A DNA stretch of 24,000 nt from Sulfurifustaceae bacterium (GTDB taxonomy: Bacteria; Pseudomonadota; Gammaproteobacteria; Acidiferrobacterales; Sulfurifustaceae): the NCBI GenBank assembly GCA_041485885.1, contig JBGPKL010000005.1, positions 19,343 to 43,342 on the forward strand, read 5' to 3'. A model generated the notes under the pieces. It was not told the origin of the DNA and did no database searches. It saw only the letters and a program-made list of their open reading frames with translations. The translations under genes and the position numbers were made by a program. Below, in pieces: positions 1,050-16,553 of this stretch; the stretch's first letter is position 1; the number at the start of each line of letters is the position of its first letter.

Positions 1050-1991
1050 ATGATACACACCGACGATTTATCGCCTTGGATGCATAACCACGTTTTCGAT
1101 CAAGGCAGCGACGCCGCCGAACGAAGCACGCGCGCGGTGACTTGGATCACGGCGGTCATGATGATCGTAGAAGTCATCGGCGGTTGGTGGTTTAACTCCA
1201 TGGCGCTATTGGCCGACGGCTGGCACATGAGCTCGCATGTGGTCGCGATCGGCCTGAGTGCCTTTGCCTATGCCGCCGCGCGCCGGTATGTGCAGGACAA
1301 GCGCTTCGCCTTCGGTACGTGGAAAATCGAGGTGCTCGGCGGTTTTGCCAGCGCGATCTTCCTGCTCGTCGTGGCCGCGATGATGGTGGTCGGGTCGCTC
1401 GAACGTCTGGCGATGCCTCAACCCATCCACTACGTCGAAGCGATCATCATCGGTACGATTGGCTTATTGGTCAACATCGTTTGCGCGATCATTTTGCGTG
1501 GCGCACATACCCATTCGCATGCGCACAACGACCACGCGCACGATAGTCATGCACACCACGACTTGAATTTGAAATCAGCGTATGTACATGTCACGGCGGA
1601 CGCGGCGACGTCGGTCCTGGCCATCGCGGCGCTCGCCGGCGGCTGGTGGTTCGGGTGGTCTTGGCTCGACCCGGTCATGGGACTCGTCGGCGCGGTCATC
1701 GTTGGGCTGTGGGCACGCAGTCTCCTTCGCGAAACCGGCAAGGTACTGCTCGATCGCGAAATGGATCATCCGGTCGTTGAAGAAGTTCGCGAAGCGATCG
1801 ACCGGCGCGCTGCCGACGGCATGACGCGGATCACGGATCTGCACGTATGGCGCGTCGGCAAATATGCCTGGGCCTGTGCGCTGAGCCTGGTAACACGTGA
1901 CGATCACCTCAGCGCAAAGCATGTCAGGGAGTGGCTGTCGGTACACGGGGAAATCGCCCATGTGACGATAGAAATCCAGCGACGCAACTAG
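1050..1991 (+). CDS. Cation diffusion facilitator (CDF) family metal efflux transporter, DmeF/CzcD-like, with a His-rich cytoplasmic loop.
   Basis: 313-aa ORF with GAGGAG 6 nt upstream of the ATG. It has CDF TM2/TM5 motifs (LLADGWHMSSHVVAIG and YVHVTADAATSVLAI), the loop HTHSHAHNDHAHDSHAHHD, and a C-terminal CDF domain (THLHVW-like ITDLHVWRVG). Confidence 0.9.
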   Translation: MIHTDDLSPWMHNHVFDQGSDAAERSTRAVTWITAVMMIVEVIGGWWFNSMALLADGWHMSSHVVAIGLSAFAYAAARRYVQDKRFAFGTWKIEVLGGFASAIFLLVVAAMMVVGSLERLAMPQPIHYVEAIIIGTIGLLVNIVCAIILRGAHTHSHAHNDHAHDSHAHHDLNLKSAYVHVTADAATSVLAIAALAGGWWFGWSWLDPVMGLVGAVIVGLWARSLLRETGKVLLDREMDHPVVEEVREAIDRRAADGMTRITDLHVWRVGKYAWACALSLVTRDDHLSAKHVREWLSVHGEIAHVTIEIQRRN

Positions 1992-2216
1992 CGCGCGAGT
2001 GCACACGAAAGCAATCGACTCGCAGAACCGAAGAACACGGCGCGAGCGCGGTGCGGTTCCATCCGAACGGCCGTTCGAGCCATGCGATCAAGCCGGATGG
2101 CCGGAGACCAAACCCGGACATCTGCTTTACGTCTTCCACTGTTCTTTCTGCCGGCTACACCGCTTTCCTATCTCTGATCCGTTCCATCCACCCTTCGATG
2201 GAACAGACCTTGAACC

Positions 2217-2275
2217 AACAACAGAAAAGAAATAATCGCCTACTGCATGGACATTATCTGTCCATCAAGTAGGCG
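2217..2275 (-). terminator. Rho-independent terminator closing the cus-like operon and the small gene.
   Basis: Nested hairpin cgcctact-gc-atggaca-ttatc-tgtccat-ca-agtaggcg at 2237-2275, overlapping the last codons and stop. On the minus strand it is followed by ATTATTTCTTTTCTGTTGTT. Confidence 0.6.
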
Positions 2276-2463
2276 TGTACGCGCCAGCAGTCGTTAATAT
2301 TCATCAAAGCCGGCTTGGACATCAGCTTCGCATGCATCTTGAAGCAGACCTCCTTCTTGGCGTCATTGCCGGATTGCTTGTCTTGCGCAGCGTAGGCGCC
2401 CGCCGACATAACGGCAAACAATGCCGCGGCGATCGAAGCGATGATATGGAAAGGCGTTTTCAT
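2254..2463 (-). CDS. Small secreted protein of 69 aa with a signal peptide. The mature part is rich in Cys, His, Met and Lys. Function unknown.
   Basis: An internal ATG at 2463 is preceded by AAGGGA. The sequence MKTPFHIIASIAAALFAVMSAGAYA/AQDK fits a Sec signal. The mature part is KEVCFKMHAKLMSKPALMNINDCWRVHAYLMDR. The opposite-strand ORF 2275..2517 looks spurious. Confidence 0.6.
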   Translation of the reverse strand: MKTPFHIIASIAAALFAVMSAGAYAAQDKQSGNDAKKEVCFKMHAKLMSKPALMNINDCWRVHAYLMDR

Positions 2464-2698
2464 GGTTTTCCCTTTAGTAGGTTGATTGCGGTTCAAAACA
2501 GACTTCTGACTGCCTGATAGAGCACGCTGCACCCTCCGACTCTTTGGTGAGACAGGTTTACTTCATTCTCGTGGGCGGATGAGTGTCAGACTAGTGGCTC
2601 GTTTTATTTTCCTGTTCCTTTCTCTAATAAGTTGAGGAACGTCAGGGAAGTCGGGCGCAGACAGGCGCCTGTGCAAAAGCTACGCGTCCTTTTCGACA

Positions 2699-5600
2699 TT
2701 AGTCCACCCTATGCCGTCGGTTTTGCCACAACAGGTACGCCGCCGGAATCACCGCGAGGGTGAGCACCGCCACGCTCAGCATGCCACCGACCATCGGCGC
2801 GGCAATGCGCTGCATCGCCTCGGAGCCGGCGCCGCTGCTCCAGAGGATCGGGAGCAAGCCCGCGATGATCGCGGTGTTGGTCATGATGATAGGACGGATA
2901 CGCATCAGCGCGCCTTCGGTAACCGCGTCGTGGATGTCCTTGCGTGTCAGCTTTTCGCCGCGCTGCGCGCGCGCCTCCGCGCGATGCTTCAGGGCCTGAT
3001 CGAGGTAGGCGAGCATCACCACGCCGATCTCGGCGGCCACCCCCCCGAGCGCGATGAAGCCCACGGCCACTGCGACCGACAGGTTGTAGCCGAGCAAATA
3101 CAACAGCCAGAAACCCCCGACCAGGGCGAGCGGCAGGGTGATGACGATAATGAGTACCTCCATCGCATTGCGGAAGTTGAGATACAAGAGGAACAAAATG
3201 ATCGTCACGGCGACCGGCACCACAATGGCAAGCCGTTCCATGGCACGCTGCAGGTACTCGTACTGACCGGACCAGATTAGCGAGTAGCCGGGCGGCAGCT
3301 TTACCTTCTCCGCAACCGCCTTCTGCGCCTCGGCGACATAAGACCCGATGTCGCGGTCGCGGAAGTCCACGTAGATCCAGCCGGACAGACGCGCATTCTC
3401 GGAGCGAATCATGTCGGGGCCGTCGGCGATGCGCACCTCGGCCACCTCAGCGAGCGGAATCGGCACCCCGCTCATGGTAACTATCGGCAACACCCGCAGC
3501 CGCTCGAACGAGTCGCGAATATCGGCCGGGTAGCGCAGGTTCACCGGGTAGCGCTCGCGCCCTTCAACCGTTTCGGTCACGTTCATCCCACCGATCGCCG
3601 TCTCTACCGTATCCTGGATGTCCATGATGTTCAGCCCGAAGCGTGCCGCGCGATTGCGATCGATCTTAATGTCCACGTAGCGCGCGCCGGTGAGTCGCTC
3701 GGCGTACACCGAGGTCGTGCCCGGGATCGTGCGCATGACCTCCTCGATCTCGCGACCGACGCTCTCAATGGTCGCCAACGATGAACCGGCGACCTTGATT
3801 CCCACGGGGGTACGGATGCCGGTGGTAAGCATGTCGATGCGCGTCTTGATGGGCGGCACGAAGACGTTCGACAGTCCCGGGAACTTCACCAGCTCGTTCA
3901 TCTCGGCGACAAGTTTTTCCGTGGTCATGCCCGGGCGCCACTCGGACTTGGGCTTAAGCTGCACCACGGTTTCGAACATGGACAGCGGCGCGGGATCGGT
4001 CGCGGACTCGGCGCGTCCCGCCTTGCCGAATACCGTCGCTACCTCCGGGAGAGTTTTCAGTGCCCGGTCGGTCTGCTGCAGCACTTGTTGCGCCTTGCCG
4101 GAAGAGAGTCCCGGTAGCGTCGTTGGCATGTAGAGGAGATCGCCCTCGTACATATCCGGCATGAATTCGGTGCCGACCTTCATCACCGGAATGGCGCCGA
4201 GCGCGATGAGCACGGCGGCGACTCCCATCACCTTCTTCGGGTGCACCAGTACGAGTTCGATGAGCGGGCGGTAGGCTCTGAGCAGAATGCGGTTGACGGG
4301 GTTTTCGTGCTCGGATCGGATGCGGCCGCGAATGAGGTAACCCATGAGCACGGGCACCAGCGTCACCGACAGCCCGGCCGCGGCGGCCATGGCGTAGGTC
4401 TTGGTGAAGGCGAGCGGCGAGAACAGCCGGCCTTCCTGCGCCTGCAATGCAAACACCGGGAGAAAACTGACGGTGATGATGAGCAGCGAGAAGAACAGCG
4501 GCGGGCCCACTTCCTCGGTGGCTTTGCGGATAATCTCCCAGCGGTTTTTCTCGGTGGCTTGCTCGCGCTCAAGATGCTTGTGCGCGTTCTCGATCATGAC
4601 GATGGCCGCATCCACCATGGCGCCGATGGCGATGGCGATGCCGCCGAGTGACATGATGTTGGCGGTGATGCCTTGAGACGTCATGACGATGAAGGCCACG
4701 AGGATGCCGATCGGAAGCATGAGGATGGCGACGAGCGAGGAACGCAGATGGAGCAGGAACACCACACACACAAGCGCCACGATGGCGAACTCTTCGATGA
4801 GCGTGCCGGTGAGGTTTTTCACCGCGCGCTTGATCAGCCCCGAGCGGTCGTAGGTCGGAATGATCTCGACGCCTTCGGGCAGGCTATTCTTTAAACTCGC
4901 AAGCTTGGCTTTGACGGCCTCGATCGTGGCGAGCGCGTTCTGGCCGTGGCGCATGATGATGATGCCGCCGGCGACCTCGCCCTCGCCGTTCAACTCGGTG
5001 ATGCCGCGGCGCATCTCGGGACCGAGACGGATCTCCGCCACCTGCTCGAGGCGGATCGGCATACCCGCGGAGGTGACACCGAGCGTGATCGCGCGCAGAT
5101 CCTTCAGGCTCTGAATGTAGCCGCGCGTGCGGATCATGTACTCAGCCTCGGCCATTTCGATCACCGAACCGCCCGATTCTTGGTTGGCCTTCTCGATCGC
5201 CATGCGCACGTCGGCAAGCGTGAGCCGATACGCGCGCAGCTTCACCGGGTTTACCACGACCTGATATTGCTTCACCATGCCGCCCACGGAGGCAACCTCG
5301 GATACGCCGGGTACCTTGCGCAACTCGTATTTCAGGAACCAGTCTTGCAGTGAACGCAGTTGCGCAAGATCGTGTTTGCCGCTGCGGTCCACCAGGGCGT
5401 ACTCGTACACCCAGCCGACGCCGGTCGCATCCGGTCCGAGCGCCGGGCGCGCACCGCGCGGCAGCCGCGGCAGCACCTGCGAGAGGTACTCGAGCACGCG
5501 CGAGCGCGCCCAGTAGAGGTCGGTGCCGTCCTCGAAAATGATGTAGACGAACGAGTCGCCGAACATGGAGTAGCCGCGCACCGTGACCGCACCCGGCACC

Positions 5601-5824
5601 GAGAGCATGGCGGTCGCCAGCGGATAGGTGACCTGGTCCTCGACAATCTGCGGTGCCTGGCCGGGGTAGCTGGTCTTGATGATGACCTGCACGTCCGACA
5701 GATCGGGTATCGCATCGAGTGGCGTGCGCGCGACTGCGAAGATCCCGCCGGCGACGAGCATCGCCGTGATGAGCAGCACCAGGAAGCGATTGTTGAGCGA
5801 CCAGCGGATGACGGCGGCGATCAC
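2699..5824 (-). CDS. cusA: CusA/CzcA-family heavy-metal efflux RND permease, Cu(I)/Ag(I) type.
   Basis: 1041 aa, matching CusA length. The three-Met relay context is conserved as remembered from E. coli CusA (GDLLYMPTT, PLSMFETV, TRIDMLTTGI). It has a 12-TM RND architecture. The GTG start overlaps the cusB stop (GTGA at 5821-5824). Confidence 0.93.
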   Translation of the reverse strand: MIAAVIRWSLNNRFLVLLITAMLVAGGIFAVARTPLDAIPDLSDVQVIIKTSYPGQAPQIVEDQVTYPLATAMLSVPGAVTVRGYSMFGDSFVYIIFEDGTDLYWARSRVLEYLSQVLPRLPRGARPALGPDATGVGWVYEYALVDRSGKHDLAQLRSLQDWFLKYELRKVPGVSEVASVGGMVKQYQVVVNPVKLRAYRLTLADVRMAIEKANQESGGSVIEMAEAEYMIRTRGYIQSLKDLRAITLGVTSAGMPIRLEQVAEIRLGPEMRRGITELNGEGEVAGGIIIMRHGQNALATIEAVKAKLASLKNSLPEGVEIIPTYDRSGLIKRAVKNLTGTLIEEFAIVALVCVVFLLHLRSSLVAILMLPIGILVAFIVMTSQGITANIMSLGGIAIAIGAMVDAAIVMIENAHKHLEREQATEKNRWEIIRKATEEVGPPLFFSLLIITVSFLPVFALQAQEGRLFSPLAFTKTYAMAAAAGLSVTLVPVLMGYLIRGRIRSEHENPVNRILLRAYRPLIELVLVHPKKVMGVAAVLIALGAIPVMKVGTEFMPDMYEGDLLYMPTTLPGLSSGKAQQVLQQTDRALKTLPEVATVFGKAGRAESATDPAPLSMFETVVQLKPKSEWRPGMTTEKLVAEMNELVKFPGLSNVFVPPIKTRIDMLTTGIRTPVGIKVAGSSLATIESVGREIEEVMRTIPGTTSVYAERLTGARYVDIKIDRNRAARFGLNIMDIQDTVETAIGGMNVTETVEGRERYPVNLRYPADIRDSFERLRVLPIVTMSGVPIPLAEVAEVRIADGPDMIRSENARLSGWIYVDFRDRDIGSYVAEAQKAVAEKVKLPPGYSLIWSGQYEYLQRAMERLAIVVPVAVTIILFLLYLNFRNAMEVLIIVITLPLALVGGFWLLYLLGYNLSVAVAVGFIALGGVAAEIGVVMLAYLDQALKHRAEARAQRGEKLTRKDIHDAVTEGALMRIRPIIMTNTAIIAGLLPILWSSGAGSEAMQRIAAPMVGGMLSVAVLTLAVIPAAYLLWQNRRHRVD

Positions 5825-6756
5825 GGTTTTTTCTCCTCGCCCTCGGCAGGTTGCATACGCGAGAAGCTCGCGCGCACATTTGCTTCGGAGTCGATCAGGA
5901 ACTGGCCCGAGGTCACTACGGTATCGCCTTCCTTGATGCCCTTGAGAATCTCGACCCAGTCGTCGCTCTCAACCCCGGGAACCACCTCGACCGATTGAAA
6001 GCGCCCCTCGCTTAAGCGCAGTACCACGGCGTTGCGCTGGCCGGTACGGATGAGCGCCTCGCGTGGAATGAAGAGCGACCGCCTGCCTGCGGGCGCGCCC
6101 TGGATCACGACTTCGGCCAGCATGTTGGGTTTGAGCGTGGCGTCCGGCCGGTTCAGTCGCACGCGTGCCTTGAGCGAGCGCGGGCCGATGTCGATGTCAG
6201 ACTCCACGCGGTCGACGGCGCCGGGAAAAACGCGCCCCGGCACGTCGGACACGCGGACCTCGGCCTGCTGGCCCGGGCGCACCAGGTTTACGTCGCGGTC
6301 GAAGACGTCAACCAGCACGGCCATACCCTGGTCATCGCGGAACAGATAACCCGTCGTCACCATCCGGCGCGGCGGCGCGCCGCGCGTGACCGTGTGGGTC
6401 CGTACGCCGAGGTTCTGCACGATCTCGGGGCGGACGGTGACGATGGGCGTCCCGTCCGTGGGCCCGCCAGTCGCTCCCGGCGTCCCGCCTCCCGCGACAC
6501 TAGTACTTCCCTGTGCGTCGTCGTACACGGGCACCATGTCCATGTTCATGGGCGACTTGCCGGGCTTGTCGCTCTTGAAGCCTGGGATCATCGGGTCGGT
6601 CCAATAGAGAATCTTGCGTTCCTTTTTCGCGCCCTCGGTCGCGGTCGCTGCCCCCTGGGACTTCTTTTCAGACAGGGCATACCACGCCCCGATGGCGGCG
6701 GCACCGAGTGCGGCGACTAACAGCACGGCGATCACGAGAGTGTGTTTGCGATTCAT
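5821..6756 (-). CDS. cusB: CusB-like periplasmic adaptor (membrane fusion protein), unusually short at 311 aa.
   Basis: N-terminal ILYWTDPMIPGFKSDKPGKSPMNMDMVPVY matches the CusB Cu-binding N-terminus (FWYDPMYPNTRFDKPGKSPFMDMDLVP). The C-terminus ends with SGQFLIDSEANV (CusB: SGLFLIDSEANI). An ATGA overlap with the upstream OMP gene lies at 6753-6756. Confidence 0.85.
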   Translation of the reverse strand: MNRKHTLVIAVLLVAALGAAAIGAWYALSEKKSQGAATATEGAKKERKILYWTDPMIPGFKSDKPGKSPMNMDMVPVYDDAQGSTSVAGGGTPGATGGPTDGTPIVTVRPEIVQNLGVRTHTVTRGAPPRRMVTTGYLFRDDQGMAVLVDVFDRDVNLVRPGQQAEVRVSDVPGRVFPGAVDRVESDIDIGPRSLKARVRLNRPDATLKPNMLAEVVIQGAPAGRRSLFIPREALIRTGQRNAVVLRLSEGRFQSVEVVPGVESDDWVEILKGIKEGDTVVTSGQFLIDSEANVRASFSRMQPAEGEEKKP

Positions 6757-8003
6757 GGCGCATCTCCGGTGAGATACAGAAGTTCCGCGTGCGTCTTGGC
6801 GAGATCTACGCGCAGGCGCAGGAGTTCGAGGTTGGTATCAAACTCCTTCAGACGCGCCTCGCGCAGCGTGGTCTGCTCGCGCGCAAAACCCGCGATCGTG
6901 ACCTGTGTCTCGCGGCGGATGGCGGGCAGCAGTTGTTCCTCGATAATCTTGGCGCGCGCCGCGAGCGCGTCGTACTCGGCGCGCATTGCCGCATACATGG
7001 TCTCCACCTCGCGGCGCTTGTCTTCGGTTTCGAGGCGCGCACCGGCCTCCAGCGCCTGCTTTTCGGCAAGCCGCCGATCTTGACGCTTGGAGCGAAAGAT
7101 CGGCAGGTCGAGCGTGACCATGGCCGTCACCATGTTGGGGCGCTCCGTGCCGTCTGGCATCGGCCGGCGGAAACCGTAGGAAAGATCCAGCATCACCCCC
7201 GGTTTGTAGTCCTGACGCGCCATGTCCACCTCGGCGCGCATGGTCTCGAGCTCGGCCTGCGCCGCCAACCATTCCGGATGGCGCGTGGGGTCGAAGTCGC
7301 CGGGAAGAGCGGACAAGGCCGGCAGCGCCTCGGGCAGAGGCGCTTGGGCGGCCGCGCCGATGAAGCGCTGAAGCTGCGCGCGCAGTCGCGCGGCCTGTGC
7401 CCGCAGCATCGGTTCGCGCTCATTCACCCGCGCGAGCACTTGGCGCGCCACGAACACTGTGCGCTGACTTTCCTGGGCGGCGCGGTAACGACCCTCGGCG
7501 GCTTCCAAGTCGCGCCTCGCGAGCTGCCGCGACTCCTCGAGAATTTTCAACGACTGATTCGCGAGATAAAGATCAAACCAAAAGGCACGAACCTGTCGGA
7601 GCAGGTTGCGGCGCCCGATCTCGAGGCGCGCCTGCTCGCGTGCAAGCTGCTGCTCGGCGCGGCGTGTGCGGATGTTAAGCGTGTCTCCGGGCGGAAACGC
7701 CTGGCGCACGCCGATCATCTTCATCGTCATGTCCTCCTCGCGAAAGCTGAACGAGTTCGCCGGTACGTTGATGGCCCCGAGCGTGAGCTGCGGATCGGGG
7801 AGCCGGCCTTCGTAGGTCACGCGCTCGGCGGCGGCGGCAACGCTCGTGTGTGCGCGCGCAAGCCCCGGCGCCTGTTCGAGCGCCAGGCGTTCTCCTTCGG
7901 CCAGCGACAACGGTGACTGCGCCATGGCGGTTAGCGGCGCGCCGAACGAAAGTACAGACATTAATAAAACCCCCGGACACGAAAACACGCGGCAAAAAGA
8001 CAT
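6753..8003 (-). CDS. TolC-family outer-membrane efflux protein (CusC position), with no lipobox.
   Basis: Two-repeat OEP-like sequence rich in L, A, R, Q and E. Signal peptide MSFCRVFSCPGVLLMSVLSFGAPLTAMA/Q. I prefer the ATG at 8003 because GGAGGG lies 6 nt upstream. The alternative ATG at 8015 is the one used in the ORF track. Confidence 0.85.
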   Translation of the reverse strand: MSFCRVFSCPGVLLMSVLSFGAPLTAMAQSPLSLAEGERLALEQAPGLARAHTSVAAAAERVTYEGRLPDPQLTLGAINVPANSFSFREEDMTMKMIGVRQAFPPGDTLNIRTRRAEQQLAREQARLEIGRRNLLRQVRAFWFDLYLANQSLKILEESRQLARRDLEAAEGRYRAAQESQRTVFVARQVLARVNEREPMLRAQAARLRAQLQRFIGAAAQAPLPEALPALSALPGDFDPTRHPEWLAAQAELETMRAEVDMARQDYKPGVMLDLSYGFRRPMPDGTERPNMVTAMVTLDLPIFRSKRQDRRLAEKQALEAGARLETEDKRREVETMYAAMRAEYDALAARAKIIEEQLLPAIRRETQVTIAGFAREQTTLREARLKEFDTNLELLRLRVDLAKTHAELLYLTGDAP

Positions 8004-8108
8004 GTGTCCCTCCATTCATTTCGTTAAACAGTTTCTGCATCCTCCGAGTAGACAAACACAAAGCACAGCACCAGACCGCCGGATGGCAGCCCGGACGAGG
8101 GCTACGGT

Positions 8109-8504
8109 CTACTTCCGGAAGACTACGTGGCGAACAAAAATCGGCGGGGAACCGTCGGGCGCGAGCCGCAACTGCGCGTAGGAATCCGCGCGCGACTCGC
8201 TCGCATCATCGAACGTTGCAAATGGCGTTAACGGCAACGCGACGACGGCAACCGGCGCGACGGGCGGGGCCGGTAGCTGATCCCCTTTGAGTTGCGATTG
8301 TGCATCGCTGTGGGCCTTGCATAGGTTCGACTGATCGGTGCTGCCGGCACCGGTCGTGCAATCCCGTGACATGGCCGATTCACCGATCCGCATGTCGGTC
8401 ACGTAAGGACAAGCATACGCCGCCACGGCGACCTGCATAAACAGCAGAGCCACAACAGCGACCCACGCAGTGAACCGGCGCGCGCTTCGGGAGATCCTCA
8501 TCAT
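8109..8504 (-). CDS. Hypothetical membrane-anchored or secreted protein with 4 Cys and a Pro/Ala/Val-rich middle. It is the first gene of the cus-like operon. A resemblance to DUF2946 is only a guess.
   Basis: 131-aa ORF. It has a basic N-terminus plus a hydrophobic helix (RRFTAWVAVVALLFMQVAVAAYA). Cys residues sit at ACPY, RDC and LCKAH. It is co-directional with the OMP gene, 93 nt upstream of it. Confidence 0.6.
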   Translation of the reverse strand: MMRISRSARRFTAWVAVVALLFMQVAVAAYACPYVTDMRIGESAMSRDCTTGAGSTDQSNLCKAHSDAQSQLKGDQLPAPPVAPVAVVALPLTPFATFDDASESRADSYAQLRLAPDGSPPIFVRHVVFRK

Positions 8505-9160
8505 GAAAATAGTCTAACAACCATTACGTTACTCTCGTTGTCCATACGCTACCCCATGAAGAGAGCGATGCTTACATCAAAGATTTCATCGCTATTTTCT
8601 AGGGGACTGTCCTTGTTAAAGAGTTTAGGTTCATGTCGAGCCTTTACATTGATCTAAGTCAAAGTTCAGAAGCAAGTAAGTATCCCAAGCTAGTGCTGTG
8701 CTCGGAAATAGAAACATAGGACGCGGGCACTTATGTATTAAGCAAGACCGTCGCCGGCGGCGCCGCAGAGATCCGCAAGTGGCTGGACGAGCGCCTCGAT
8801 CAGAGTTTCGACGCAGCGTTTGTACAACCTGGCGGCATATCCGATGAGGACTGTGTCAGGACTATCGCGCAAACAACTATCGCGTAGAAGCCAGCATCAC
8901 TGAACGTCGCCACGACTACGACGATCCCCAGCGTCTTCCACTAGTTCCGCGACCATTTGTACGAACTTAGGCCCTTCTTCTTCACCGATGCGTCTCCCGA
9001 TTGAACACTCGTAAGTTACCGCAAGTGGAAGTCCGGCAACGAGGCCACGTAGTCCTGTTGCGACACCGCGTGCCGTTACGTAGCTACACAAAGTTGCTGA
9101 TTCTGCATCTCGTGAGATGTTCGAGGCCAGCTATCTGAACTTGGGGATATAGAGCAAAAC

Positions 9161-10219
9161 ATGGCTGACCTTCGATACATCAGACCAAATCATTTGTGTC
9201 GTCGGGCAAACCGGGTGCGTGCATTGGTTGTTGTCCCTGGGATACCGACCGCCTTGTGCTTGGGTCTCATCCATCCGTTGCTTATGTTGCCAACCGGCAT
9301 CGCGTTATTGGCGATTTGGAATCGACAACGTCGACTGCTCAAGGGGGCACAAGGTGAAGACTTGGCGCTGGGAGTTCCAACTGCGGTACCGGGGCCACTC
9401 TCCCGCCTTGGGGACGACTATATGGTCTTCAACCAACTACGTGTCCCTTGGCGAAACACGACATTGGAGCTGGACTTTGTGGTCGTAGGACCAAACGGGG
9501 TCTTCGATATTGAGTGCAAACACCTTGTCGAGGAAATCGTCGGCCGCGACGTCGACCAGCAGTGGGTTCAGCGCAAGCGCGGACGCGGCGGTGTACTGAT
9601 CACCAGGGGAGCTCGCAATCCGGTAGTTCAGGTGCGGCGTTCGGCCCGTGCACTCGCGACCTACCTCCGCTCGATAGGGATAAATGTATCGGTGCACGCC
9701 GTGGTGGTCTTCACGCACCCGGTAGCAAAGCTCTCGGTATCGTCTAATTCTGTACCGGTTCTGACACTACCGCAACTCGCAGATCATATCGCGAATCTCC
9801 ACGGTCCGTTTCAACAACAAGGAGCGGTTATGCGAGCACTGAAAGTCCTGCGAGATACCGAGCCGAGCAGCGTCGCCATTGGAACTGCGCAACGGAAAGC
9901 GGTGTCGATGGCCGGCGGTCCCAAACACATTAGCTACTTCATGCGCGATATCGTGCCGGAGCGTGTCGAGGTGTTCATGAAACACGACATCCGGGCTGCT
10001 ATGCGCAAACAACATGGATCGGCGCCAGCGACTTCACAACGGTCGACAACAGCGTCTCCTCCGGCAATACCACGGACATACAGACCTCGACGACAACTAC
10101 GCGTAATCACCTTTGCTCGCTCGGGAGAAAAACTACGGCGTAGAACCGTAAGGACTTATAGATGCGAGGAGACTATCGAAACGGAGAAATCAAACGAAAG
10201 CGAGATAGGACGCGACTAG
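9161..10219 (+). CDS. NERD (nuclease-related) domain protein with two N-terminal TM helices and a basic low-complexity tail.
   Basis: GEDLALGVP..LGDDYMVFNQLRVPWRNTTLELDFVVVGPNGVFDIECKH...NPVVQVRRSARALATYL...HAVVVFTHP fits the NERD pattern with PD-(D/E)xK-like D...ExK residues. The hydrophobic segments are ALVVVPGIPTALCLGLI and LLMLPTGIALLAIW. Confidence 0.8.
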   Translation: MADLRYIRPNHLCRRANRVRALVVVPGIPTALCLGLIHPLLMLPTGIALLAIWNRQRRLLKGAQGEDLALGVPTAVPGPLSRLGDDYMVFNQLRVPWRNTTLELDFVVVGPNGVFDIECKHLVEEIVGRDVDQQWVQRKRGRGGVLITRGARNPVVQVRRSARALATYLRSIGINVSVHAVVVFTHPVAKLSVSSNSVPVLTLPQLADHIANLHGPFQQQGAVMRALKVLRDTEPSSVAIGTAQRKAVSMAGGPKHISYFMRDIVPERVEVFMKHDIRAAMRKQHGSAPATSQRSTTASPPAIPRTYRPRRQLRVITFARSGEKLRRRTVRTYRCEETIETEKSNESEIGRD

Positions 10220-10235
10220 CTCCCTACCGACTTGG

Positions 10236-10583
10236 TCAACGTCCCTCGCCCCGCCCTCTTTCGCGCTGGCCGTCTCTGTCTATCGGCCGAAGTTTCGCCA
10301 ACAACTCGCGCCGCTGCCTGGAGGGCATCCGATCGAGCAAAAGTACGATCTCAGCGATGTCCTCCTCACGAATATAGAAGTAGCTGGTCGGGCATCCGAG
10401 GACTTTCGCCAAGCGCTCAGCGGTCCGGAAGTCGGGTGTCCGCTTGCCTTGCTCGTACTGATTGATCCGTGGGCTGCTCGAAAGTACGTCGATGCCCGCA
10501 GCGATGCCGAGCCCACGCTGGGAAAGCCCGGCCCTGACGCGGGCCTGTTTGAGGCGTCTTGCTATCGGAGGGTCGCGATCCAT
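10236..10583 (-). CDS. XRE-family helix-turn-helix transcriptional regulator.
   Basis: RRLKQARVRAGLSQRGLGIAAGID...SPRINQYEQGKRTPDFRTAERLAKVLGCPTSYFY is a classic HTH_XRE fold. I prefer the ATG at 10583 (115 aa). The ORF track begins at TTG 10607. Confidence 0.8.
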   Translation of the reverse strand: MDRDPPIARRLKQARVRAGLSQRGLGIAAGIDVLSSSPRINQYEQGKRTPDFRTAERLAKVLGCPTSYFYIREEDIAEIVLLLDRMPSRQRRELLAKLRPIDRDGQRERGRGEGR

Positions 10584-10647
10584 GAGCAGTTTCTTATTTC
10601 TGCTCAAAATGGTCAGGCTTTTCGCATTGACCCTGGTACTAACATTT

Positions 10648-10671
10648 CGTTAGACTTTAATTCCGTTAGAC
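10648..10671. promoter_or_regulatory. Candidate operator: direct repeat CGTTAGAC x2 in the XRE-divergent intergenic region.
   Basis: CGTTAGAC occurs at 10648-10655 and 10664-10671, 16 bp apart. It lies between the XRE start and ORF 10688, with a TTGACC hexamer at 10626-10631. Confidence 0.3.
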
Positions 10672-10687
10672 CAAGGTCATCGGACTC

Positions 10688-11065
10688 ATGACTACCGAGG
10701 ATGAAGAAGACCCTGGCGGGTACGACGAACGTGGTGAAACCTATCACCACGACTCGGTGAGTGACCGAATTCAATTCATCAAGGAGAGTCCCGGCTACCG
10801 AACCCGCCGCACCGTGTTTAGGTCGGTCGGCGTCGACATCGACAAGGTAGAGACGGAAAGAAAGCTCTACGCACTCGATCGCCTGCACCGGGATCTTTTC
10901 TTCGAGGTGGTTACGGCGCGGATCATGTCTCGGCCGTCTACCAATCTCGAAAACGAGATCCTGAAAGCCACCGTTCTCAGCGAATACGAAAAGGCCAACG
11001 CCATTGCCAGGCGTCTCCGTCGCCGCAGGACCCTTGGACTTCGACCCGTTCCACATCGTGATTGA
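10688..11065 (+). CDS. Hypothetical protein of 125 aa, with an acidic N-terminus and a basic C-terminus.
   Basis: It is divergent from the XRE gene and lies 43 nt upstream of the next plus-strand gene. An antisense ORF at 10613..11056 is also open. I prefer the plus strand because the extra 3' part of the antisense ORF uses TTA, CTA and TCA codons and covers the repeat-bearing AT-richer intergenic sequence. No family recognised. Confidence 0.4.
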   Translation: MTTEDEEDPGGYDERGETYHHDSVSDRIQFIKESPGYRTRRTVFRSVGVDIDKVETERKLYALDRLHRDLFFEVVTARIMSRPSTNLENEILKATVLSEYEKANAIARRLRRRRTLGLRPVPHRD

Positions 11066-11108
11066 AATTCACACAAGTCTCTTAAATCAACAAAGACAAG
11101 GAGGAGTC

Positions 11109-11669
11109 ATGCGTTATGTCGGATCAGTGCTGGTTCTCCTGTGGGGTATTGCATCTACCGCACAAGCCGCCGCGCCCCTCTCGTTATTTGGTGTAAATCT
11201 AAAGGACGCTGAGCGCACAACGTTGCGTCAGGCGATCAAACAAGCCGGTGTCAAAGTCGAACGCGAAGACGATCGTTTCTGGCACGACGTGTATGACCCG
11301 AAAGCCGTGCTCGATGGCTCAAGCAAGCTAACCGTTGGCTACGAGGACAAAACAGGGCGTTTTGCGGTTGCCGCTTACACCTTCCCCGCCTTCGTGGACC
11401 CCGGGAAGGTTTCGGAAGTTGTTGACATGGTAAGCCGTAAGTACGGGAAGCCCTCTGAAATTGTCGGTTCCTACCAAATAGGCGCCGTCACGGCGACGTG
11501 GCAATTAGAGAAAGGCATGGGGATTGAGGTAAGCCGCGGGTGGCCGAATACGACTGTGACCTTAAAGTATTTTGACCGCGCGCGGTTTGTTCAGCTGCAG
11601 AAGGAAATACGGGCCCAAGAGGAGCAGGATCGCAACTCAAAGGCCAAGGAGCAGAGCAAGGCGTACTAA
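11109..11669 (+). CDS. Hypothetical secreted protein of 186 aa with a signal peptide.
   Basis: ATG at 11109 has the strong SD AAGGAGG 5 nt upstream. MRYVGSVLVLLWGIASTAQA/AAP fits a Sec signal. The C-terminal tail is Lys/Glu/Gln-rich. No family recognised. Confidence 0.7.
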   Translation: MRYVGSVLVLLWGIASTAQAAAPLSLFGVNLKDAERTTLRQAIKQAGVKVEREDDRFWHDVYDPKAVLDGSSKLTVGYEDKTGRFAVAAYTFPAFVDPGKVSEVVDMVSRKYGKPSEIVGSYQIGAVTATWQLEKGMGIEVSRGWPNTTVTLKYFDRARFVQLQKEIRAQEEQDRNSKAKEQSKAY

Positions 11670-11703: not shown

Positions 11704-11734
11704 CTCGCCGTGAGTTAGGGGGGCTCACGGCGAG
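11704..11734. terminator. Strong hairpin between convergent genes. It may act as a bidirectional terminator, but there is no clear U-tract.
   Basis: A perfect 11-bp stem ctcgccgtgag / ctcacggcgag with the 9-nt loop ttagggggg. It lies between the stop at 11669 (plus strand) and the stop at 11782 (minus strand). Confidence 0.4.
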
Positions 11735-11781: not shown

Positions 11782-13053
11782 TCACTTGTCGCTCTCGGCC
11801 GGATTGCTGGACCCAGCGTTCCTCGGTGTAAGAAACGTGCCCAGATAGGCGGAGCTCACCTTACGCCTACCGTGGCCATAGAGCTTCGCAATCTGTTGAC
11901 GCGCCTGCTTGTCCCCCTCACGTTCTGCTGGCAGCGGCGGATGTCCTCCTCGCACCGGACTTTTTCTCCCTGTTAGCTTCTCGTAGAGGTCATTCCCAAA
12001 GCCGTGACGCAAACCATGCGGCACCAAACCCGTCTTGCGAGAAATTCCGTGGCGCCGACAAATACGGTAGAAACGCGCGCGCCATGCGGCAAGAGAATAC
12101 TTCGCGGGGATCATTGAGCCGATGGGGGCGTTTGCGAGCGACTTCGCAAAGTCTAGTGCCTTGCGCTGATCGCTGGTGTTGATCGGTTCATCGCGCTCCA
12201 AACCTCCTTTGGTCCCGTGGGCCACCTGGAGAGCATCCCCACCATCATTGTCATCCGGGCGCAGTTGCCAGGCCTCCTGAGCACGCAGGCCGAATACTGC
12301 CTGAAGCAGGAGACAGGTTCCTGCGTGACTATCATCTGCTAGTACCTCGGCGATACGCTCGGACGGATCAACATCCTTGGCGGTCCAGCTCTTATCTGTC
12401 GTGGCTACCCGTATTCTGGCGGCACGCGTTGGATCGACCAGGTAATAGCTGATATCACGTACCAGTCCGCGCTTTTCGATCCAGCGCTCTAGCGTCCGCA
12501 GGAACGAGTGATACTTCTGCAAAGTCGGCGCCGAATGGCCGCGGGTTTCCCACGACCGAACCAGATAGCGGATATGTTTCCCCCGCAGGTGGTGGACATC
12601 GCGAACTTTGTATCCGCCGTCGTAAAGGTCGGCGATACAGCGACTGAAGAATTGACGTCGCTCGCGCTGAGTAGCTGCGCTAATTATCCTCGCGCCCTCG
12701 ATGTCGCGATCGTTGCGGGCTTTGAGAAGCACGTGTAGCGAGCGTCGACAGGAGTTTCGTGCTCCCCCGCGTTCGCGCCCTTTTCGTACAGGTCTTTCCT
12801 TAGCGTGTTGTGCTGACGGAATGTTCTCCGCGGACACCGACTGCTGGCCATGCTCGACTGAATTTCTATTTCTCATACGTTCCTCTACATGCGGGAGATC
12901 CCGCCAAAGCAAATTGTTTATCGGCTGCATCGAGTGCAATGCAGGAAGAAATGGGCTCGTTTGCGCAAGTGAGCGCAGGCGTTCGTTTAGTGCTGGTTCG
13001 GCTTCCGACCGTCCGTATTGCGGGTACGATTGAATGTGGCTTGCACTAGCCAC
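11782..13053 (-). CDS. Tyrosine-type recombinase/integrase of the plasmid/ICE-type 'integrase N-terminal + Integrase_1' family.
   Basis: The core-binding part is RRQFFSRCIADLYDGGYKVRDVHHLRGKHIRYLVRSWETRGHSAPTLQKYHSFLRTLERWI. Catalytic-type residues are GLRAQEA (R), HGLRHGF (HxxR) and LYGHGRRKVSSAYLG (H...Y). The true start may be internal, for example M60 at ~12876. Confidence 0.8.
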   Translation of the reverse strand: MASASHIQSYPQYGRSEAEPALNERLRSLAQTSPFLPALHSMQPINNLLWRDLPHVEERMRNRNSVEHGQQSVSAENIPSAQHAKERPVRKGRERGGARNSCRRSLHVLLKARNDRDIEGARIISAATQRERRQFFSRCIADLYDGGYKVRDVHHLRGKHIRYLVRSWETRGHSAPTLQKYHSFLRTLERWIEKRGLVRDISYYLVDPTRAARIRVATTDKSWTAKDVDPSERIAEVLADDSHAGTCLLLQAVFGLRAQEAWQLRPDDNDGGDALQVAHGTKGGLERDEPINTSDQRKALDFAKSLANAPIGSMIPAKYSLAAWRARFYRICRRHGISRKTGLVPHGLRHGFGNDLYEKLTGRKSPVRGGHPPLPAEREGDKQARQQIAKLYGHGRRKVSSAYLGTFLTPRNAGSSNPAESDK

Positions 13054-13365
13054 TTGCCGTTAGAGGTTTCAAAAAGGATTGCCTGAACGAGGAACACGCT
13101 GAGCCCAACCGACCTGCCACCGGTGGTATGCGTGTTTGCGTCCTCTTCACCAGGCAACCGCGGCAGAGCGCAGTGGCGTCGGTGAACGGCCTTCGGCCTC
13201 GGTAAACGCAGCCTCGATCAGGATTTGCGGGATAGGCCCGCTGTTATGTGCGACACAAGGTCGTTTTGGATGTAGGAGACACGTTCGACGCACGGCTCGA
13301 GACCGTGCTGTTAGAGCGCATCGCGATGTAAAAGGCGGCGAGGAAAGTACCGCCTCTGTAGGAGC

Positions 13366-13403
13366 TGCGACTGCCAAAGTCGCATTTGTATGCTGATTGT
13401 TTT
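13366..13403 (+). terminator. Orphan terminator-like hairpin in the ORF-free stretch.
   Basis: tgcgact-gccaa-agtcgca (13366-13384) is followed by TTTGTATGCTGATTGTTTT. There is no credible upstream plus-strand gene. Confidence 0.3.
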
Positions 13404-14232
13404 GGGCGCCCAGCTAGCGCTTCCGGTCTTGCAACCCACCGGCAGGGTTTTGAAACCTTCGGTCCAGCGACCACCGTACTGGTCCGTTGACGCTTAAATT
13501 ACGCCTTCGATAGCAAGAGGTCAAACATTTTTCGTCCTGCAACTTTTTGTTTCTCTGCTGAAGATGTTTGGTCTGCGCTGCGGCCACCTGCAATTCAATG
13601 TGTTGCGTATCGCTGCGCGGGCGTCTCTCTTGCAACGACGAGTCGAGTCATGCATTTGCGGTGTGACGTAGCCTCGGACTTTCGCGCCGAACCTCACCGC
13701 GCTAAGGATGCTTTACTTCTTTGTTACTTATTCGCTGCTTACCTAGTATGACGGCGGGAAGATTGCCGATGCTGATCAACGTAACCACATGCTCACCTTC
13801 AAACAGGGAATGCAGAACTACTTTGCGACAACATGACGACGTGCTCGAGAGCGACAAATGGCGCGGTCGACATCGGCGCGACATCGACGATCGAAAGTGC
13901 CTCATGTCGTTGAACCCGACGAACCACTATTGCATTTTAAATTTGCTTGTGATGATATGAATGCGTTCCTTAAATCGTATCTTGAAGGAACTTACATCGC
14001 CGGCCACTCAGTGGCCGATTACGAAATAGCGCAGCGAGGATCCTCACCTGCTGCGTTCTGCTAGAAATAGATAGCGCGGCAACTAGCAACTGCGGCCGCT
14101 TATCTCGAAAACAGTCCCCTTAGAGATTTCCACAGTGATTCGCCGCGTCGTTCGCGCGCTGCGTCTCGCTTTGGCGTTTTCGCATTCTTTTTTTCCTGAC
14201 TACCTGTTCAACCGAGTTTCTTGGAGGAATAA

Positions 14233-14617
14233 ATGACTACCGTGATTCGTGCAATCGACGTTGGCTTCGGCAACACCAAATTTTCATGGTCTCTTTCGCT
14301 GGGAGGCGAAGTGCAGTGCAAAGTTTTCCCATCCATCGCGCCGCTGGCCGCCGCCTTCGATATATCTGGCGGCGTTATCGGGAGGCGGGATACCACCGTT
14401 GTTCTAGTCGACGGGAATGCGTATGAAATCAGGCCCGATGTCGCTAAGGCATTGGGCACGCGTCGGCGGTGGCGCGCAATTTTTCAGCGACGCGATAAGA
14501 CGGCGCTCCCCTTCCCATGCCGTAACGATCTCTCCAGATGCGGTGTTCTCGAACGTCCGTGGATTTCAATTGGCTGGCGAGGAGCTGATGCGTCGGCGCC
14601 AGGCTGATGCCGCATGA
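14233..14617 (+). pseudogene. ParM/StbA-like actin-type segregation ATPase remnant, with a large internal deletion and a frameshift.
   Basis: The N-terminus IRAIDVGFGNTKF...CKVFPSIA...RRDTTVVLVDGNAYEIRPDV carries the actin-fold phosphate-1 motif. From ~14450 a different frame reads VGGGAQFFSDAIRRRSPSHAVTISPDAVFSNVRGFQLAG, which resembles a ParM-family C-terminus. About 200 residues of a typical ~320-aa protein are missing. GGAGGA lies before the ATG. Confidence 0.65.
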
Positions 14618-14889: not shown

Positions 14890-15138
14890 ATGAACGGTCA
14901 TGATACTGCACTCACCTCCCTCGTGCTGAGTCACGAGGAGATCTGTGTGGTTACGGGCCGCAAACGTCATACGGCACAGGCGCGCGCGCTTGCCGAGATG
15001 GGGATTTCATTTCGCGTGAGGCCAGATGGGTTCCCTCTGGTCTCACGCGCGCACTTCCACCAGGCGCTTGGTACGGAGATGTCGACGAGGAAACAGCGCG
15101 CAATAGAACCGAATTGGAGCGCCATCGATGCCGCGTAA
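14890..15138 (+). CDS. DUF4224-like small protein in the excisionase/accessory position upstream of the integrase.
   Basis: LSHEEICVVTGRKRHTAQARALAEMGISFRVRPDGFPLVSRAHF resembles the DUF4224 pattern often found just 5' of phage integrases. It overlaps the integrase ATG by 11 nt. Confidence 0.6.
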   Translation: MNGHDTALTSLVLSHEEICVVTGRKRHTAQARALAEMGISFRVRPDGFPLVSRAHFHQALGTEMSTRKQRAIEPNWSAIDAA

Positions 15139-16188
15139 ACGCACGCGCAAGGAAAACAAACCGCTCCCCGCACGTTGGCGCTTCCGACACGGCGCTTACT
15201 ACTATGACGTGCCGTCCCACCTGCGCGAGCAATGGAACGGCAAGCGCGAATTTCGACTCGGCACCACGTTACCAGAAGCATATGCCGAGTGGGCCAAGCG
15301 ACTGAAGACCCGTGCAGACGTTCGAACGATCGGGCAGTTACTGGATCGCTACGCGTTAGAGGTTGTACCAACCAAAGCACCCAAGACGCAGGAAGAAAAT
15401 ACGCGCGCTATCGCGAATCTCAGAGCGGTCTTCGGCGAAATGCTCATAGAGATATTAAGCCGATTCACGCGTATCAATACCGCGACCGACGCGGCAAGAC
15501 GGCGCGAACCGCAGCCAATCGTGAGCTGGAAGTCTTGTCGCACTCATTTACGAAAGCCATCGAATGGGGTTACCGGGAAGATCATCCCATGATCGAAGGC
15601 AAGTTCCGCAAGCTACCGACTCCACCACGAACCCGGTATGTCGAAGACTGGGAGATCGCTGAAGCGCTTTCGCTCGAGCCGCGGCGCCGGAAAGGCAGCC
15701 TCCATGCCGTTCGCGCCTACATCAAGATCAAGTTGCTGACCGGCCTTCGCCGCGGCGATCTCCTGCGCCTTCGTACCTCCGATTTAAGGGACGACGGTAT
15801 TCACGTCGAGCCGCACAAGACGGCGAAGACGACCGGAAAACGCATCGTCATCGAATGGACTCCAACATTGCGCCAAGCAATCGACGAAGCGAAGGCCGCC
15901 CGACCCGTGGACATCGGACCATACCTGTTCTGTACGAAACGGGGTGATCCGTACGTGAGCGAAGATGGCAGAGCCAACGGCTGGGATTCGATGTGGGGTC
16001 GTTTCATGGATCGAGTACTGACGGAAACGAAGATAAAGGATCGATTCACGGAACATGATCTGCGTGCCAAGTGCGCCTCAGACGCAGAGACTCTTGAACA
16101 TGCACAACAGCTACTCGCGCATGCCGACAGTGCGACGACTCGCAGGGTCTATCGGCGGCGCCCAGAAAGAGTGAAGCCCCTCAAGTGA
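15128..16188 (+). pseudogene. Phage-type tyrosine integrase disrupted by a 1-nt deletion-type frameshift near 15449-15452.
   Basis: The N-terminal ORF 15128..15592 reads ...NLRAVFGEMLIE and then turns to nonsense. The ORF in the other frame continues DIKPIHAYQYRDRRGKTARTAANRELEVLSHSF...LLTGLRRGDLLRL (R)...HDLRAK (HxxR)...LLAHADSATTRRVY (H..Y). Restoring one G in GAG(G)AT gives a continuous 353-aa protein. The gene ends 117 nt from the tRNA-Arg 3' end. Confidence 0.8.
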
Positions 16189-16240: not shown

Positions 16241-16269
16241 ATATCGGACAACTCTGAAAATATCGGACA
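16241..16269. repeat. 10-bp direct repeat ATATCGGACA x2 between the integrase and tRNA-Arg.
   Basis: ATATCGGACA occurs at 16241-16250 and 16260-16269. Confidence 0.5.
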
Positions 16270-16305: not shown

Positions 16306-16382
16306 TGGCGCGCCCGGAGAGATTCGAACTCCCGACCACCTGGTTCGTAGCCAGGTACTCTGTCCAGCTGAGCTACGGGCGC
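16306..16382 (-). tRNA. tRNA-Arg (anticodon ACG), 77 nt with encoded CCA.
   Basis: The reverse complement is GCGCCCGTAGCTCAGCTGGACAGAGTACCTGGCTACGAACCAGGTGGTCGGGAGTTCGAATCTCTCCGGGCGCGCCA. The acceptor stem is GCGCCCG/CGGGCGC, the anticodon loop CTACGAA and the T-arm GGGAG-TTCGAAT-CTCTC. Confidence 0.95.
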
Positions 16383-16459: not shown

Positions 16460-16553
16460 TGGCGGAGAGAGAGGGATTCGAACCCTCGATGGGACTTTTG
16501 ACCCCATACTCCCTTAGCAGGGGAGCGCCTTCGACCAACTCGGCCATCTCTCC
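16460..16553 (-). tRNA. tRNA-Ser (anticodon GCT), 94 nt with a long variable arm and encoded CCA.
   Basis: The reverse complement is GGAGAGATGGCCGAGTTGGTCGAAGGCGCTCCCCTGCTAAGGGAGTATGGGGTCAAAAGTCCCATCGAGGGTTCGAATCCCTCTCTCTCCGCCA. The anticodon loop is CTGCTAA and the T-arm GAGGG-TTCGAAT-CCCTC. Confidence 0.95.

Follow-up and report, generated by a model that had tools for sequence, protein, structure and literature searches.

A stretch of 24,000 nucleotides from a Sulfurifustaceae bacterium (assembly GCA_041485885.1, contig JBGPKL010000005.1, positions 19,343 to 43,342 of the forward strand), called the window in the following, carries four adjacent genes between positions 9161 and 11669, which code for a NERD-domain nuclease, a helix-turn-helix (HTH) regulator of the XRE type and two small proteins, orf125 and orf186. 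The NERD protein (352 amino acids, 9161-10219, plus strand) matches the Pfam family PF08378 over residues 83-185 with 66.6 bits (cut-off 22.1, E-value 3.5e-18) and is thus a member of this family. It is followed by the gene of the XRE regulator (115 amino acids, 10236-10583, minus strand; Pfam HTH_31, 2.3e-11, and HTH_3, 1.5e-10), which is convergent with the NERD gene and separated from it by 16 bp between the stop codons, and by the plus-strand genes of orf125 (125 amino acids, 10688-11065) and orf186 (186 amino acids, 11109-11669). A first-pass annotation of the sequence had described the convergent arrangement correctly and had read the four genes as one module, a candidate defence or abortive-infection-like system. 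Its four open reading frames (ORFs) are all in place and intact; the module, however, did not survive a comparison with other genomes, and it is very probable that the four genes are not a conserved unit. On balance, we favour a reading in which they make up 2.5 kb at the distal end of an island of about 7 kb beside a tRNA-Arg gene, with NERD, XRE and two recombinase genes as the backbone and with orf125 and orf186 in a variable slot.

Co-occurrence of the four genes and the island backbone

Genomic contexts of NERD homologs were gathered by exact look-up, a genome scan and a metagenome scan, which gave 15 distinct loci outside the window that encode a NERD protein of the long or intermediate form (37-63% identity, 33-44% where truncated); individual loci are referred to by L numbers. 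An XRE homolog (51-64% identity) lies within 0-5.5 kb of the NERD gene in eight of the 15 loci, a homolog or relative of the Integrase_1-type recombinase that follows orf186 is found in seven, and three loci have neither. Relatives of orf125 and orf186, searched for with tblastn and profile hidden Markov models, are present in none of the 15 loci, and since these loci are partly related, all counts are upper bounds on independent observations. The identical four-gene arrangement is confined to three metagenomic contigs, whose proteins are 100% identical. Only the NERD, XRE and Integrase_1 genes keep recurring as a group, at loose spacing and in an order that varies, which is the behaviour of an island backbone and not that of an operon-like defence system.

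A single anti-phage or abortive-infection system, composed of a nuclease effector, a regulator and two partners or sensors, would be in keeping with the contiguous, compact and intact state of the genes on the island and with the position of the XRE gene between NERD and the orf125-orf186 operon, where it could couple them. It would also agree with the lack of housekeeping or phage-structural matches for the two small proteins in Pfam, NCBIfam, PADLOC, PHROGs and fold searches, a point on which the annotation was right. However, the absence of orf125 and orf186 from all other long-form NERD loci largely refutes such a system; members of the orf125 family were never found with NERD or orf186 in the other loci collected, homologs of orf186 occur without NERD, and the full combination is limited to the three identical metagenomic copies. 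As the annotation had already stated, no named defence system fits either: PADLOC-DB v2 returned no complete system, and its partial matches are the N-domain of PglW, the Control_protein model and HTH regions of RmrA, with none for orf186. We consider a four-gene defence system highly improbable.

orf186 has ten homologs with 45-57% identity. Homologs were located in four contexts other than the island, near a RelE/HTH pair, Cas2, MobI/AbiE and other genes, and neither NERD nor orf125 is found in any of them. In three of these four contexts, the orf186 homolog is divergent from an XRE-type gene, including L102, where the XRE protein is 68% identical to that of the window. The genomic context of the orf125 family is known from this island only. 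Both genes are treated here as accessory, variable cargo.

The arrangement around the backbone genes recurs at other tRNA genes, and the proposal that the segment is mobile-island DNA at a tRNA site was borne out by loci L103, L105 and L107. L103 carries, in this order, NERD, small ORFs, TraT, XRE, a small transmembrane protein, Integrase_1, DUF4224, an integrase and tRNA-Lys, and the gene order of L105 is the same. In L107, NERD is followed by an Integrase_1-like gene, DUF4224, an integrase, tRNA-Arg(ACG) and tRNA-Ser(GCT), which is the tRNA pair of the window. A relative that lacks NERD, L100, has Integrase_1-like, DUF4224 and integrase genes and, farther on, an XRE gene with two operators. 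The order of the island family is tRNA, integrase, DUF4224, Integrase_1, variable genes, XRE, variable genes and NERD, with NERD in a fixed position at the end opposite the integrase. An island family that combines a putative membrane NERD protein with an XRE regulator of the restriction-controller type has previously gone unremarked.

The XRE regulator and its operators

The XRE protein is homologous to the restriction-modification (R-M) controller protein C.Csp231I (PDB 3lfp, E-value 6.7e-26, residues 7-94) and matches the PADLOC Control_protein model with 6.4e-27. A further match, PDB 4o8b (3.6e-20), is listed as an uncharacterized protein and is presumably BswR of P. aeruginosa. The ORF extends upstream to a TTG at 10607 (123 amino acids); however, translation probably starts at the ATG at 10583, since alignments with homologs begin at residue 9 of the longer form. 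XRE shares the extended C-terminal region of the larger class of controller (C) proteins that includes C.Csp231I and C.EcoO109I (motif 8 of Sorokin et al.). In contrast to these proteins, it is encoded monocistronically, is convergent with the only nuclease gene and has no R-M genes next to it; neither a methyltransferase nor a restriction endonuclease was found in the window segment or in the relatives. Judged by its sequence and neighbours, XRE is a homolog of C proteins that stands outside any R-M system.

C.Csp231I recognizes a pair of CTAAG-N5-CTTAG palindromes (PMC4321490). In L004, L005, L006 and L010, this palindrome or its mirror image CTTAG-N5-CTAAG occurs exactly twice upstream of the XRE homolog and is confined to that region, and the pattern is absent from the 92 other loci of the 96 that were compared. 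Operator pairs are also present in L100, L102, L103, L108 and L133. Their start-to-start spacing is 34 bp in L108 and L133, compared to 33 bp in Csp231I, and 48-56 bp in most relatives. The window contains an operator-like palindrome, CTAAC-ATTTC-GTTAG (10639-10653), a symmetric variant of the same class in which an identical G-to-C exchange in each half-site preserves the dyad symmetry. It is the sole match to the pattern in the 24 kb, where 0.79 matches are expected by chance on average; the chance of one landing in this 104-bp region is about 0.003. A degenerate half-site, CTTTA-ATTCC-GTTAG (10655-10669), adjoins it, and an inverted repeat, GAGCAG-N10-CTGCTC (10584-10605), which could be a proximal operator or a hairpin of the 5' untranslated region, abuts the XRE start codon. 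Furthermore, the -10 element of a sigma-70-like promoter candidate (TTGACC-18-TAGACT, 10627-10656, plus strand), which points into orf125 and orf186 and is the sole promoter-like match between 8400 and 13400, is overlapped by the palindrome.

Homology and the sites found make it probable that XRE is an operator-binding autoregulator of the divergent region. As a dimeric repressor or activator of the C.Csp231I class, it would bind CTAAS-N5-STTAG palindromes in its own upstream region, thereby regulating its own expression and gating transcription of orf125-orf186 through the palindrome that covers the -10 element. Unlike the C.Csp231I system, the window has one variant palindrome and a half-site, and the divergent partner genes vary by locus: uncharacterized proteins of 329-413 amino acids are encoded at this place in L004, L005 and L010, TraT in L006, a transmembrane protein and an orf186 homolog in L102, and other proteins in L100. 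Since the partners differ among loci, XRE appears to control a swappable slot.

The XRE homolog near eight of the 15 NERD genes raises the question of whether NERD and XRE function as a unit of two genes, either as a toxin with its controller, comparable to an R-M system without a methylase and working by convergent transcription or antisense RNA, or as a pair resembling a toxin-antitoxin (TA) system. The identical 16-bp tail-to-tail junction in the window, L004 and L005 (NERD identity 61-63%) speaks for such a unit, as does the genuine homology of XRE to a controller of restriction endonucleases, and the question of whether C proteins outside R-M systems control toxic genes was raised by Sorokin et al. 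(PMC2632904). In addition, a terminator-like hairpin followed by a T-run lies on the minus strand at 10133-10151, inside the 3' end of the NERD gene and some 85 nt beyond the stop codon of XRE; it could end the XRE transcript within an antisense stretch of NERD, although chance is also possible (seven such sites compared to 5.2 expected). However, the two genes are convergent and not co-transcribed, which also sets them apart from type II TA systems with an XRE/HigA-type antitoxin, and no XRE operator was found upstream of NERD in the window or in the relatives. The genes are separated by 1-5 kb of other genes in L006, L010, L105, L108 and L133; XRE homologs with 67-68% identity occur without NERD in L098, L100 and L102, and NERD occurs without XRE in L007 and in the loci that encode its short form. 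A functional NERD-XRE pair is thus unlikely.

In L102 (4187-5724), the XRE gene with its two operators is followed in divergent orientation by a small gene and then by the orf186 homolog, which is 51% identical and frameshifted in the contig; the small gene codes for a membrane protein of 118 amino acids that is unrelated to orf125. The XRE homolog of L098 (7001-7432, 143 amino acids, 68% identity) is co-directional with its neighbours and has no operator palindrome. Its surroundings, with LuxI/LuxR, a P450 and an HMG-CoA reductase, look like a secondary-metabolite or quorum-sensing cluster, so that this XRE clade is not restricted to mobile elements.

The putative membrane NERD nuclease

The nuclease residues that the annotation had called intact, quoting the motif ELDFVVVG...FDIECKH, are indeed so: E103, D105, E118 and K120 (E-x-D...E-x-K) and an RNP..Q motif do not vary across 22 homologs or across another 12, among them the short forms of Idiomarina. 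The protein begins with a conserved MADLRY..PN.L motif, which is followed by a putative membrane hairpin (21-53), the nuclease core (about 60-213) and a tail (215-352). The hairpin region is hydrophobic, with four prolines among residues 21-53 and a basic stretch on either side (1-20, net charge +5, and 54-61, NRQRRLLK). Hydropathy and the positive-inside rule are consistent with a pair of helices whose outer ends, like the nuclease, lie in the cytoplasm, in agreement with the two helices postulated earlier. The tail of 138 residues has a net charge of +13 and 31 serine, threonine or proline residues, as its earlier description as rich in arginine, serine, threonine and proline implied, and is partly conserved (HISYFMRD..ERVE and, at the C-terminus, R.VRTY..E..E.EE). 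Compared to other NERD proteins, the family of the window adds the N-terminal motif and a basic tail of 140 amino acids. This long form is rare, with 31 relatives among 5.8 billion protein clusters. A short form of about 235 amino acids has no tail and shares the N-terminal motif, the hairpin and the catalytic residues. In Aeromonas and Idiomarina, its gene stands alone and, in the latter, lies in conserved synteny, which argues that the protein can work alone.

A sequence-profile search of the NERD family against the PDB gave no match at E<=0.1, no viral relatives of NERD or orf186 were found in IMG/VR contigs, which gives no support to a phage origin, and in PHROGs, NERD matches only a generic family of unknown function, the other matches being generic regulators and integrases. 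Two long-form homologs have matches to defence models nearby (HmaA helicase, 3e-171, in L004; PDC-S61, 2e-12, in L007), which is a weak hint at best, and in L006 and L103 the NERD gene lies beside the exclusion gene TraT and an ORF with weak similarity to TraS.

NERD is probably autonomous, since its promoter region is separate, XRE operators are missing upstream of it and some of its relatives are solitary genes. A mechanism is suggested by SNIPE, a GIY-YIG nuclease that is anchored in the membrane, cleaves phage DNA as this is injected and is prevented by its anchor from self-cleavage; two transmembrane segments are found in 7% of SNIPE homologs (bioRxiv 10.1101/2025.11.03.685801). NERD resembles SNIPE in its predicted N-terminal anchor, its nuclease that would face the cytoplasm, its positively charged region, its organization as a single gene and its location on mobile DNA. 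However, the NERD/PD-(D/E)xK fold is unrelated to GIY-YIG, DUF4041 is missing and Pfam finds the NERD domain only, so that the likeness is an analogy of mechanism and not family membership. By this analogy, NERD would be a PD-(D/E)xK nuclease with a basic C-terminal tail that is held at the inner membrane by its hairpin, faces the cytoplasm and cuts DNA arriving there by phage injection, conjugation or uptake, while sequestration at the membrane would keep it off the chromosome. The intact catalytic residues, the rare and patchy distribution and the location on islands lead us to favour an entry-barrier or exclusion nuclease over the alternatives, followed by a housekeeping-like role, a C-controlled toxin pair and, last, the four-gene system; taken by itself, however, a function of NERD as a DNA-entry barrier is a tentative proposal.

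Several observations weigh against this picture. The short forms of Idiomarina (L011, L013, L015-L023 and L025) are single-copy genes with both flanks syntenic in 10-12 species; in L020, the neighbours are suhB, trmJ and iscRS. The short form is thus vertically inherited, which is unusual for defence genes and nearer to a housekeeping role like that of SmdA. For NERD, PADLOC and NCBIfam gave only sub-threshold matches to the NERD N-domains of PglW and MADS6. A role of this NERD family in defence is conjectural, and its short-form relatives weaken the case for it. The 15 loci are not all independent, as L108 and L133, and probably L107, L110, L112 and L115, are related elements. In the window, XRE has one full operator and a half-site where its relatives have two operators, so that its regulation may be altered or lost, and the promoter candidate upstream of orf125 is a consensus match only. 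Finally, neither the direct repeats of the window nor sequences matching the 3' end of tRNA-Arg, looked for near 8000-9300 and at other places, yielded an att repeat, and the same was true of L103 and L107; the distal border of the island is therefore unproven (8505-9160 or beyond) and may reach into the neighbouring czc block.

NERD might instead serve a purpose other than defence, either in a cell function linked to the membrane or nucleoid or in the maintenance of the island or exclusion by it, with the XRE-controlled cargo being unrelated. The precedent is SmdA of S. aureus, a transmembrane-anchored NERD protein that acts as a division factor and whose degenerate NERD domain lacks several conserved residues (PMC9040797). 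Compared by description, SmdA has one transmembrane helix and belongs to the core of the Staphylococcaceae; the NERD protein of the window shares the layout in having a predicted membrane anchor plus a NERD domain. The Idiomarina short forms, which are single-copy, syntenic and equipped with the same motif, hairpin and catalytic residues, would suit such a role, and so would the exclusion genes beside NERD in L006 and L103 and its fixed position opposite the integrase. On the other hand, the long form is rare, patchy and island-borne, unlike a housekeeping gene, it keeps all of the conserved residues that are missing in SmdA, and no relaxase, replication or transfer genes lie beside NERD in the window. 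We regard a non-defensive role as rather unlikely. The resemblance to the BREX protein PglW and to MADS6 is restricted to the N-terminal NERD region; the kinase domain is absent, and scores of 45.7 bits (cut-off 460) and 21.1 bits (cut-off 990) place NERD in neither family.

It is tempting to extend the entry-barrier reading and to speculate that the long-form membrane NERD protein is a single-gene entry-point nuclease, the PD-(D/E)xK/NERD counterpart of SNIPE, which would destroy phage or conjugative DNA on its way through the inner membrane, and the selectable payload of undescribed small tRNA islands in which a co-opted controller gates swappable cargo; taken as a whole, this is doubtful. 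If NERD is a membrane-tethered entry barrier, the strategy of cutting DNA at the door, which was shown recently for SNIPE, would have arisen independently on another nuclease fold, and a bacterial NERD protein with intact catalytic residues would gain a function for the first time. The XRE regulator would then be a clean example of a C.Csp231I-type controller reused, in the absence of R-M genes, as a general switch of mobile elements, a reuse that the C-protein literature had left as an open question (PMC2632904). At present, the main value of the comparison is corrective: an apparent four-gene system is an island backbone with exchangeable cargo, and orf125 and orf186 are not to be counted among the parts of a NERD system. 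What it offers is a modest lead towards a possible DNA-entry barrier rather than a new four-gene defence system.

Cargo proteins, recombinases and surroundings of the island

orf125 is predicted to be a small cytoplasmic protein with a basic C-terminus and, as noted earlier, an acidic N-terminus (net charge -8 in the first 30 residues). It is a real gene, because 22 cluster representatives of similar length (108-194 amino acids, identity down to 25%) were found in a library of 1.84 billion proteins. An antisense ORF of 147 amino acids (10613-11056, minus strand), which is called in two public assemblies (L002 and L003), was rejected as a shadow ORF, as homology favours orf125. Its structural model (predicted local distance difference test (pLDDT) score 88.9) consists of a beta-hairpin and five helices, and fold searches against the PDB and BFVD returned nothing better than an E-value of 1.6. 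Pfam, NCBIfam and PADLOC gave nothing significant for either cargo protein, the best PADLOC match of orf125 being an insignificant one to MTase_II (E-value 0.0045), and Pfam searches with all 22 family members gave scattered single insignificant matches only. A sequence-profile match of orf125 to a designed protein in the PDB was judged spurious. A metagenome scan for relatives of orf125 found no usable conserved pattern and no confirmed match.

The orf186 gene has a strong Shine-Dalgarno sequence (AAGGAGG, 11098-11104) 4 nt before its ATG, and the protein starts with a hydrophobic stretch that ends in AQA/AAP and is disordered in the model; both features match the earlier description of a protein with a strong ribosome-binding site and a signal peptide. 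The protein looks as if it is exported to the periplasm, and orf125 would stay in the cytoplasm, both as accessory cargo under the control of XRE. The model of orf186 (pLDDT 86) has an alpha/beta domain and a long C-terminal helix. A sequence-profile search against the PDB gave no match, and the sole significant fold match is B. subtilis YjgB of the DUF4309 family (PDB 4ygt, Foldseek E-value 2.6e-4, probability 1.0), which is weak (TM-scores 0.43 and 0.52, root-mean-square deviation 6.2 A, 11% identity) and is not accompanied by a Pfam match to DUF4309. Compared to YjgB, whose own function is unknown, orf186 has an additional C-terminal helix of 30 residues. A hairpin with a 13-bp stem (11704-11734, z -3.3) between the convergent orf186 and Integrase_1 genes is likely to be a bidirectional terminator; this strong hairpin and the 43-bp gap without a terminator between orf125 and orf186 suggest that the two genes share a single transcript.

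The recombinase gene next to orf186 (11782-12876, minus strand, 364 amino acids from the ATG; ORF to 13053) codes for a tyrosine recombinase of the families Integrase_1 (PF12835, 40.8 bits, cut-off 23) and Phage_int_SAM_2 (PF12834, 28 bits, cut-off 22), in which the catalytic R..E, HxxR and C-terminal Y are visible (GLRAQE, HGLRHG and SSAYL). The annotation had noted an adjacent recombinase, which is present; however, it is not the tRNA-proximal integrase of the island. Homologs of Integrase_1 are common on plasmids (217 records), and one lies beside the gene of PRTRC protein D on plasmid pHG1. In the window, an internally deleted remnant of such a PRTRC-D or ParM-like, actin-type partition gene (14233-14566, plus strand), which corresponds to residues 1-72 and 288-321 of the protein of pHG1, is divergent from Integrase_1 as in pHG1, which suggests a plasmid-type stability module for partition and resolution in the ancestry of the island. 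About 1.2 kb without a long ORF separates Integrase_1 from the ParM-like fragment, which spans 14233-14607 in the layout of the window and is followed by an ORF of 87 amino acids and by the gene of a small DUF4224 protein (14890-15138, plus strand) in the position of an excisionase, upstream of the island integrase.

The island integrase (Phage_integrase, 15128-16188, plus strand) is frameshifted, with residues 1-107 in the ORF 15128-15592 and the remainder in the ORF 15232-16188, and its homologs are continuous in L100 (77% identity), L103 (74%), L105 (67%) and L107 (56%). The split is probably genuine rather than an error of assembly, because two assemblies that are independent of each other (L001 and L002) show the same split in their gene calls. 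The frameshifted integrase and the internally deleted ParM-like gene indicate that this copy of the island is decaying; NERD, XRE, orf125, orf186 and Integrase_1 are intact. The island has a phage-type integrase with DUF4224 at the 3' end of a tRNA gene, variable cargo and integrase decay in common with small tRNA islands, and differs from them in the second, plasmid-type Integrase_1, the ParM-like remnant, the conserved distal NERD and the lack of a detectable att repeat. Between the integrase stop codon and tRNA-Arg (16241-16269), ATATCGGACA occurs twice, 19 bp apart, and at the equivalent place of L107, ATTAGACA occurs twice; both repeats are possibly arm-type sites of the integrase. A 16-nt repeat at 8793 and 13211 could not be extended and was put down to chance, and no convincing pseudogene homologs of genes from other islands were found in 8505-9160 or 13000-14300.

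On the distal side, NERD is preceded by an AT-richer junction of about 650 bp (8505-9160, about 50% GC), which presumably holds the NERD promoter. It contains a coding-like stretch in a plus frame, ending near 8886 in ...AEIRKWLDERLDQSFDAAFVQPGGISDEDCVRTIAQTTIA and a stop codon and lacking a start and a homolog, and a minus-strand ORF of 64 amino acids (8897-9091) without a homolog; these pieces are perhaps what is left of genes at the border of the island. The junction adjoins a heavy-metal efflux block with a CDF transporter (1050-1991), a czcCBA-type efflux operon (RND/MFP/OMF, 2699-8015, minus strand) and an ORF of 131 amino acids (8109-8504, minus strand) that has an N-terminal hydrophobic segment and no family match. 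An Rfam scan of the window found two tRNAs and nothing further, and a plasmid search for near-identical DNA gave no match. The two tRNAs are tRNA-Arg(ACG) (16306-16382, minus strand), which is the integration site, and tRNA-Ser(GCT) (16460-16553), and beyond this pair lie csrA, lysC, alaS and recA, in this order. The czc genes stand at 63-65% GC, the stretch between NERD and the integrase at 54-58%, and lysC, alaS and recA at 58-59%. The lower-GC segment of the annotation therefore holds mainly relative to czc, as the segment lies only slightly below the core genes. The efflux block (1050-8504) is above the GC content of the core genes and may itself be acquired DNA.

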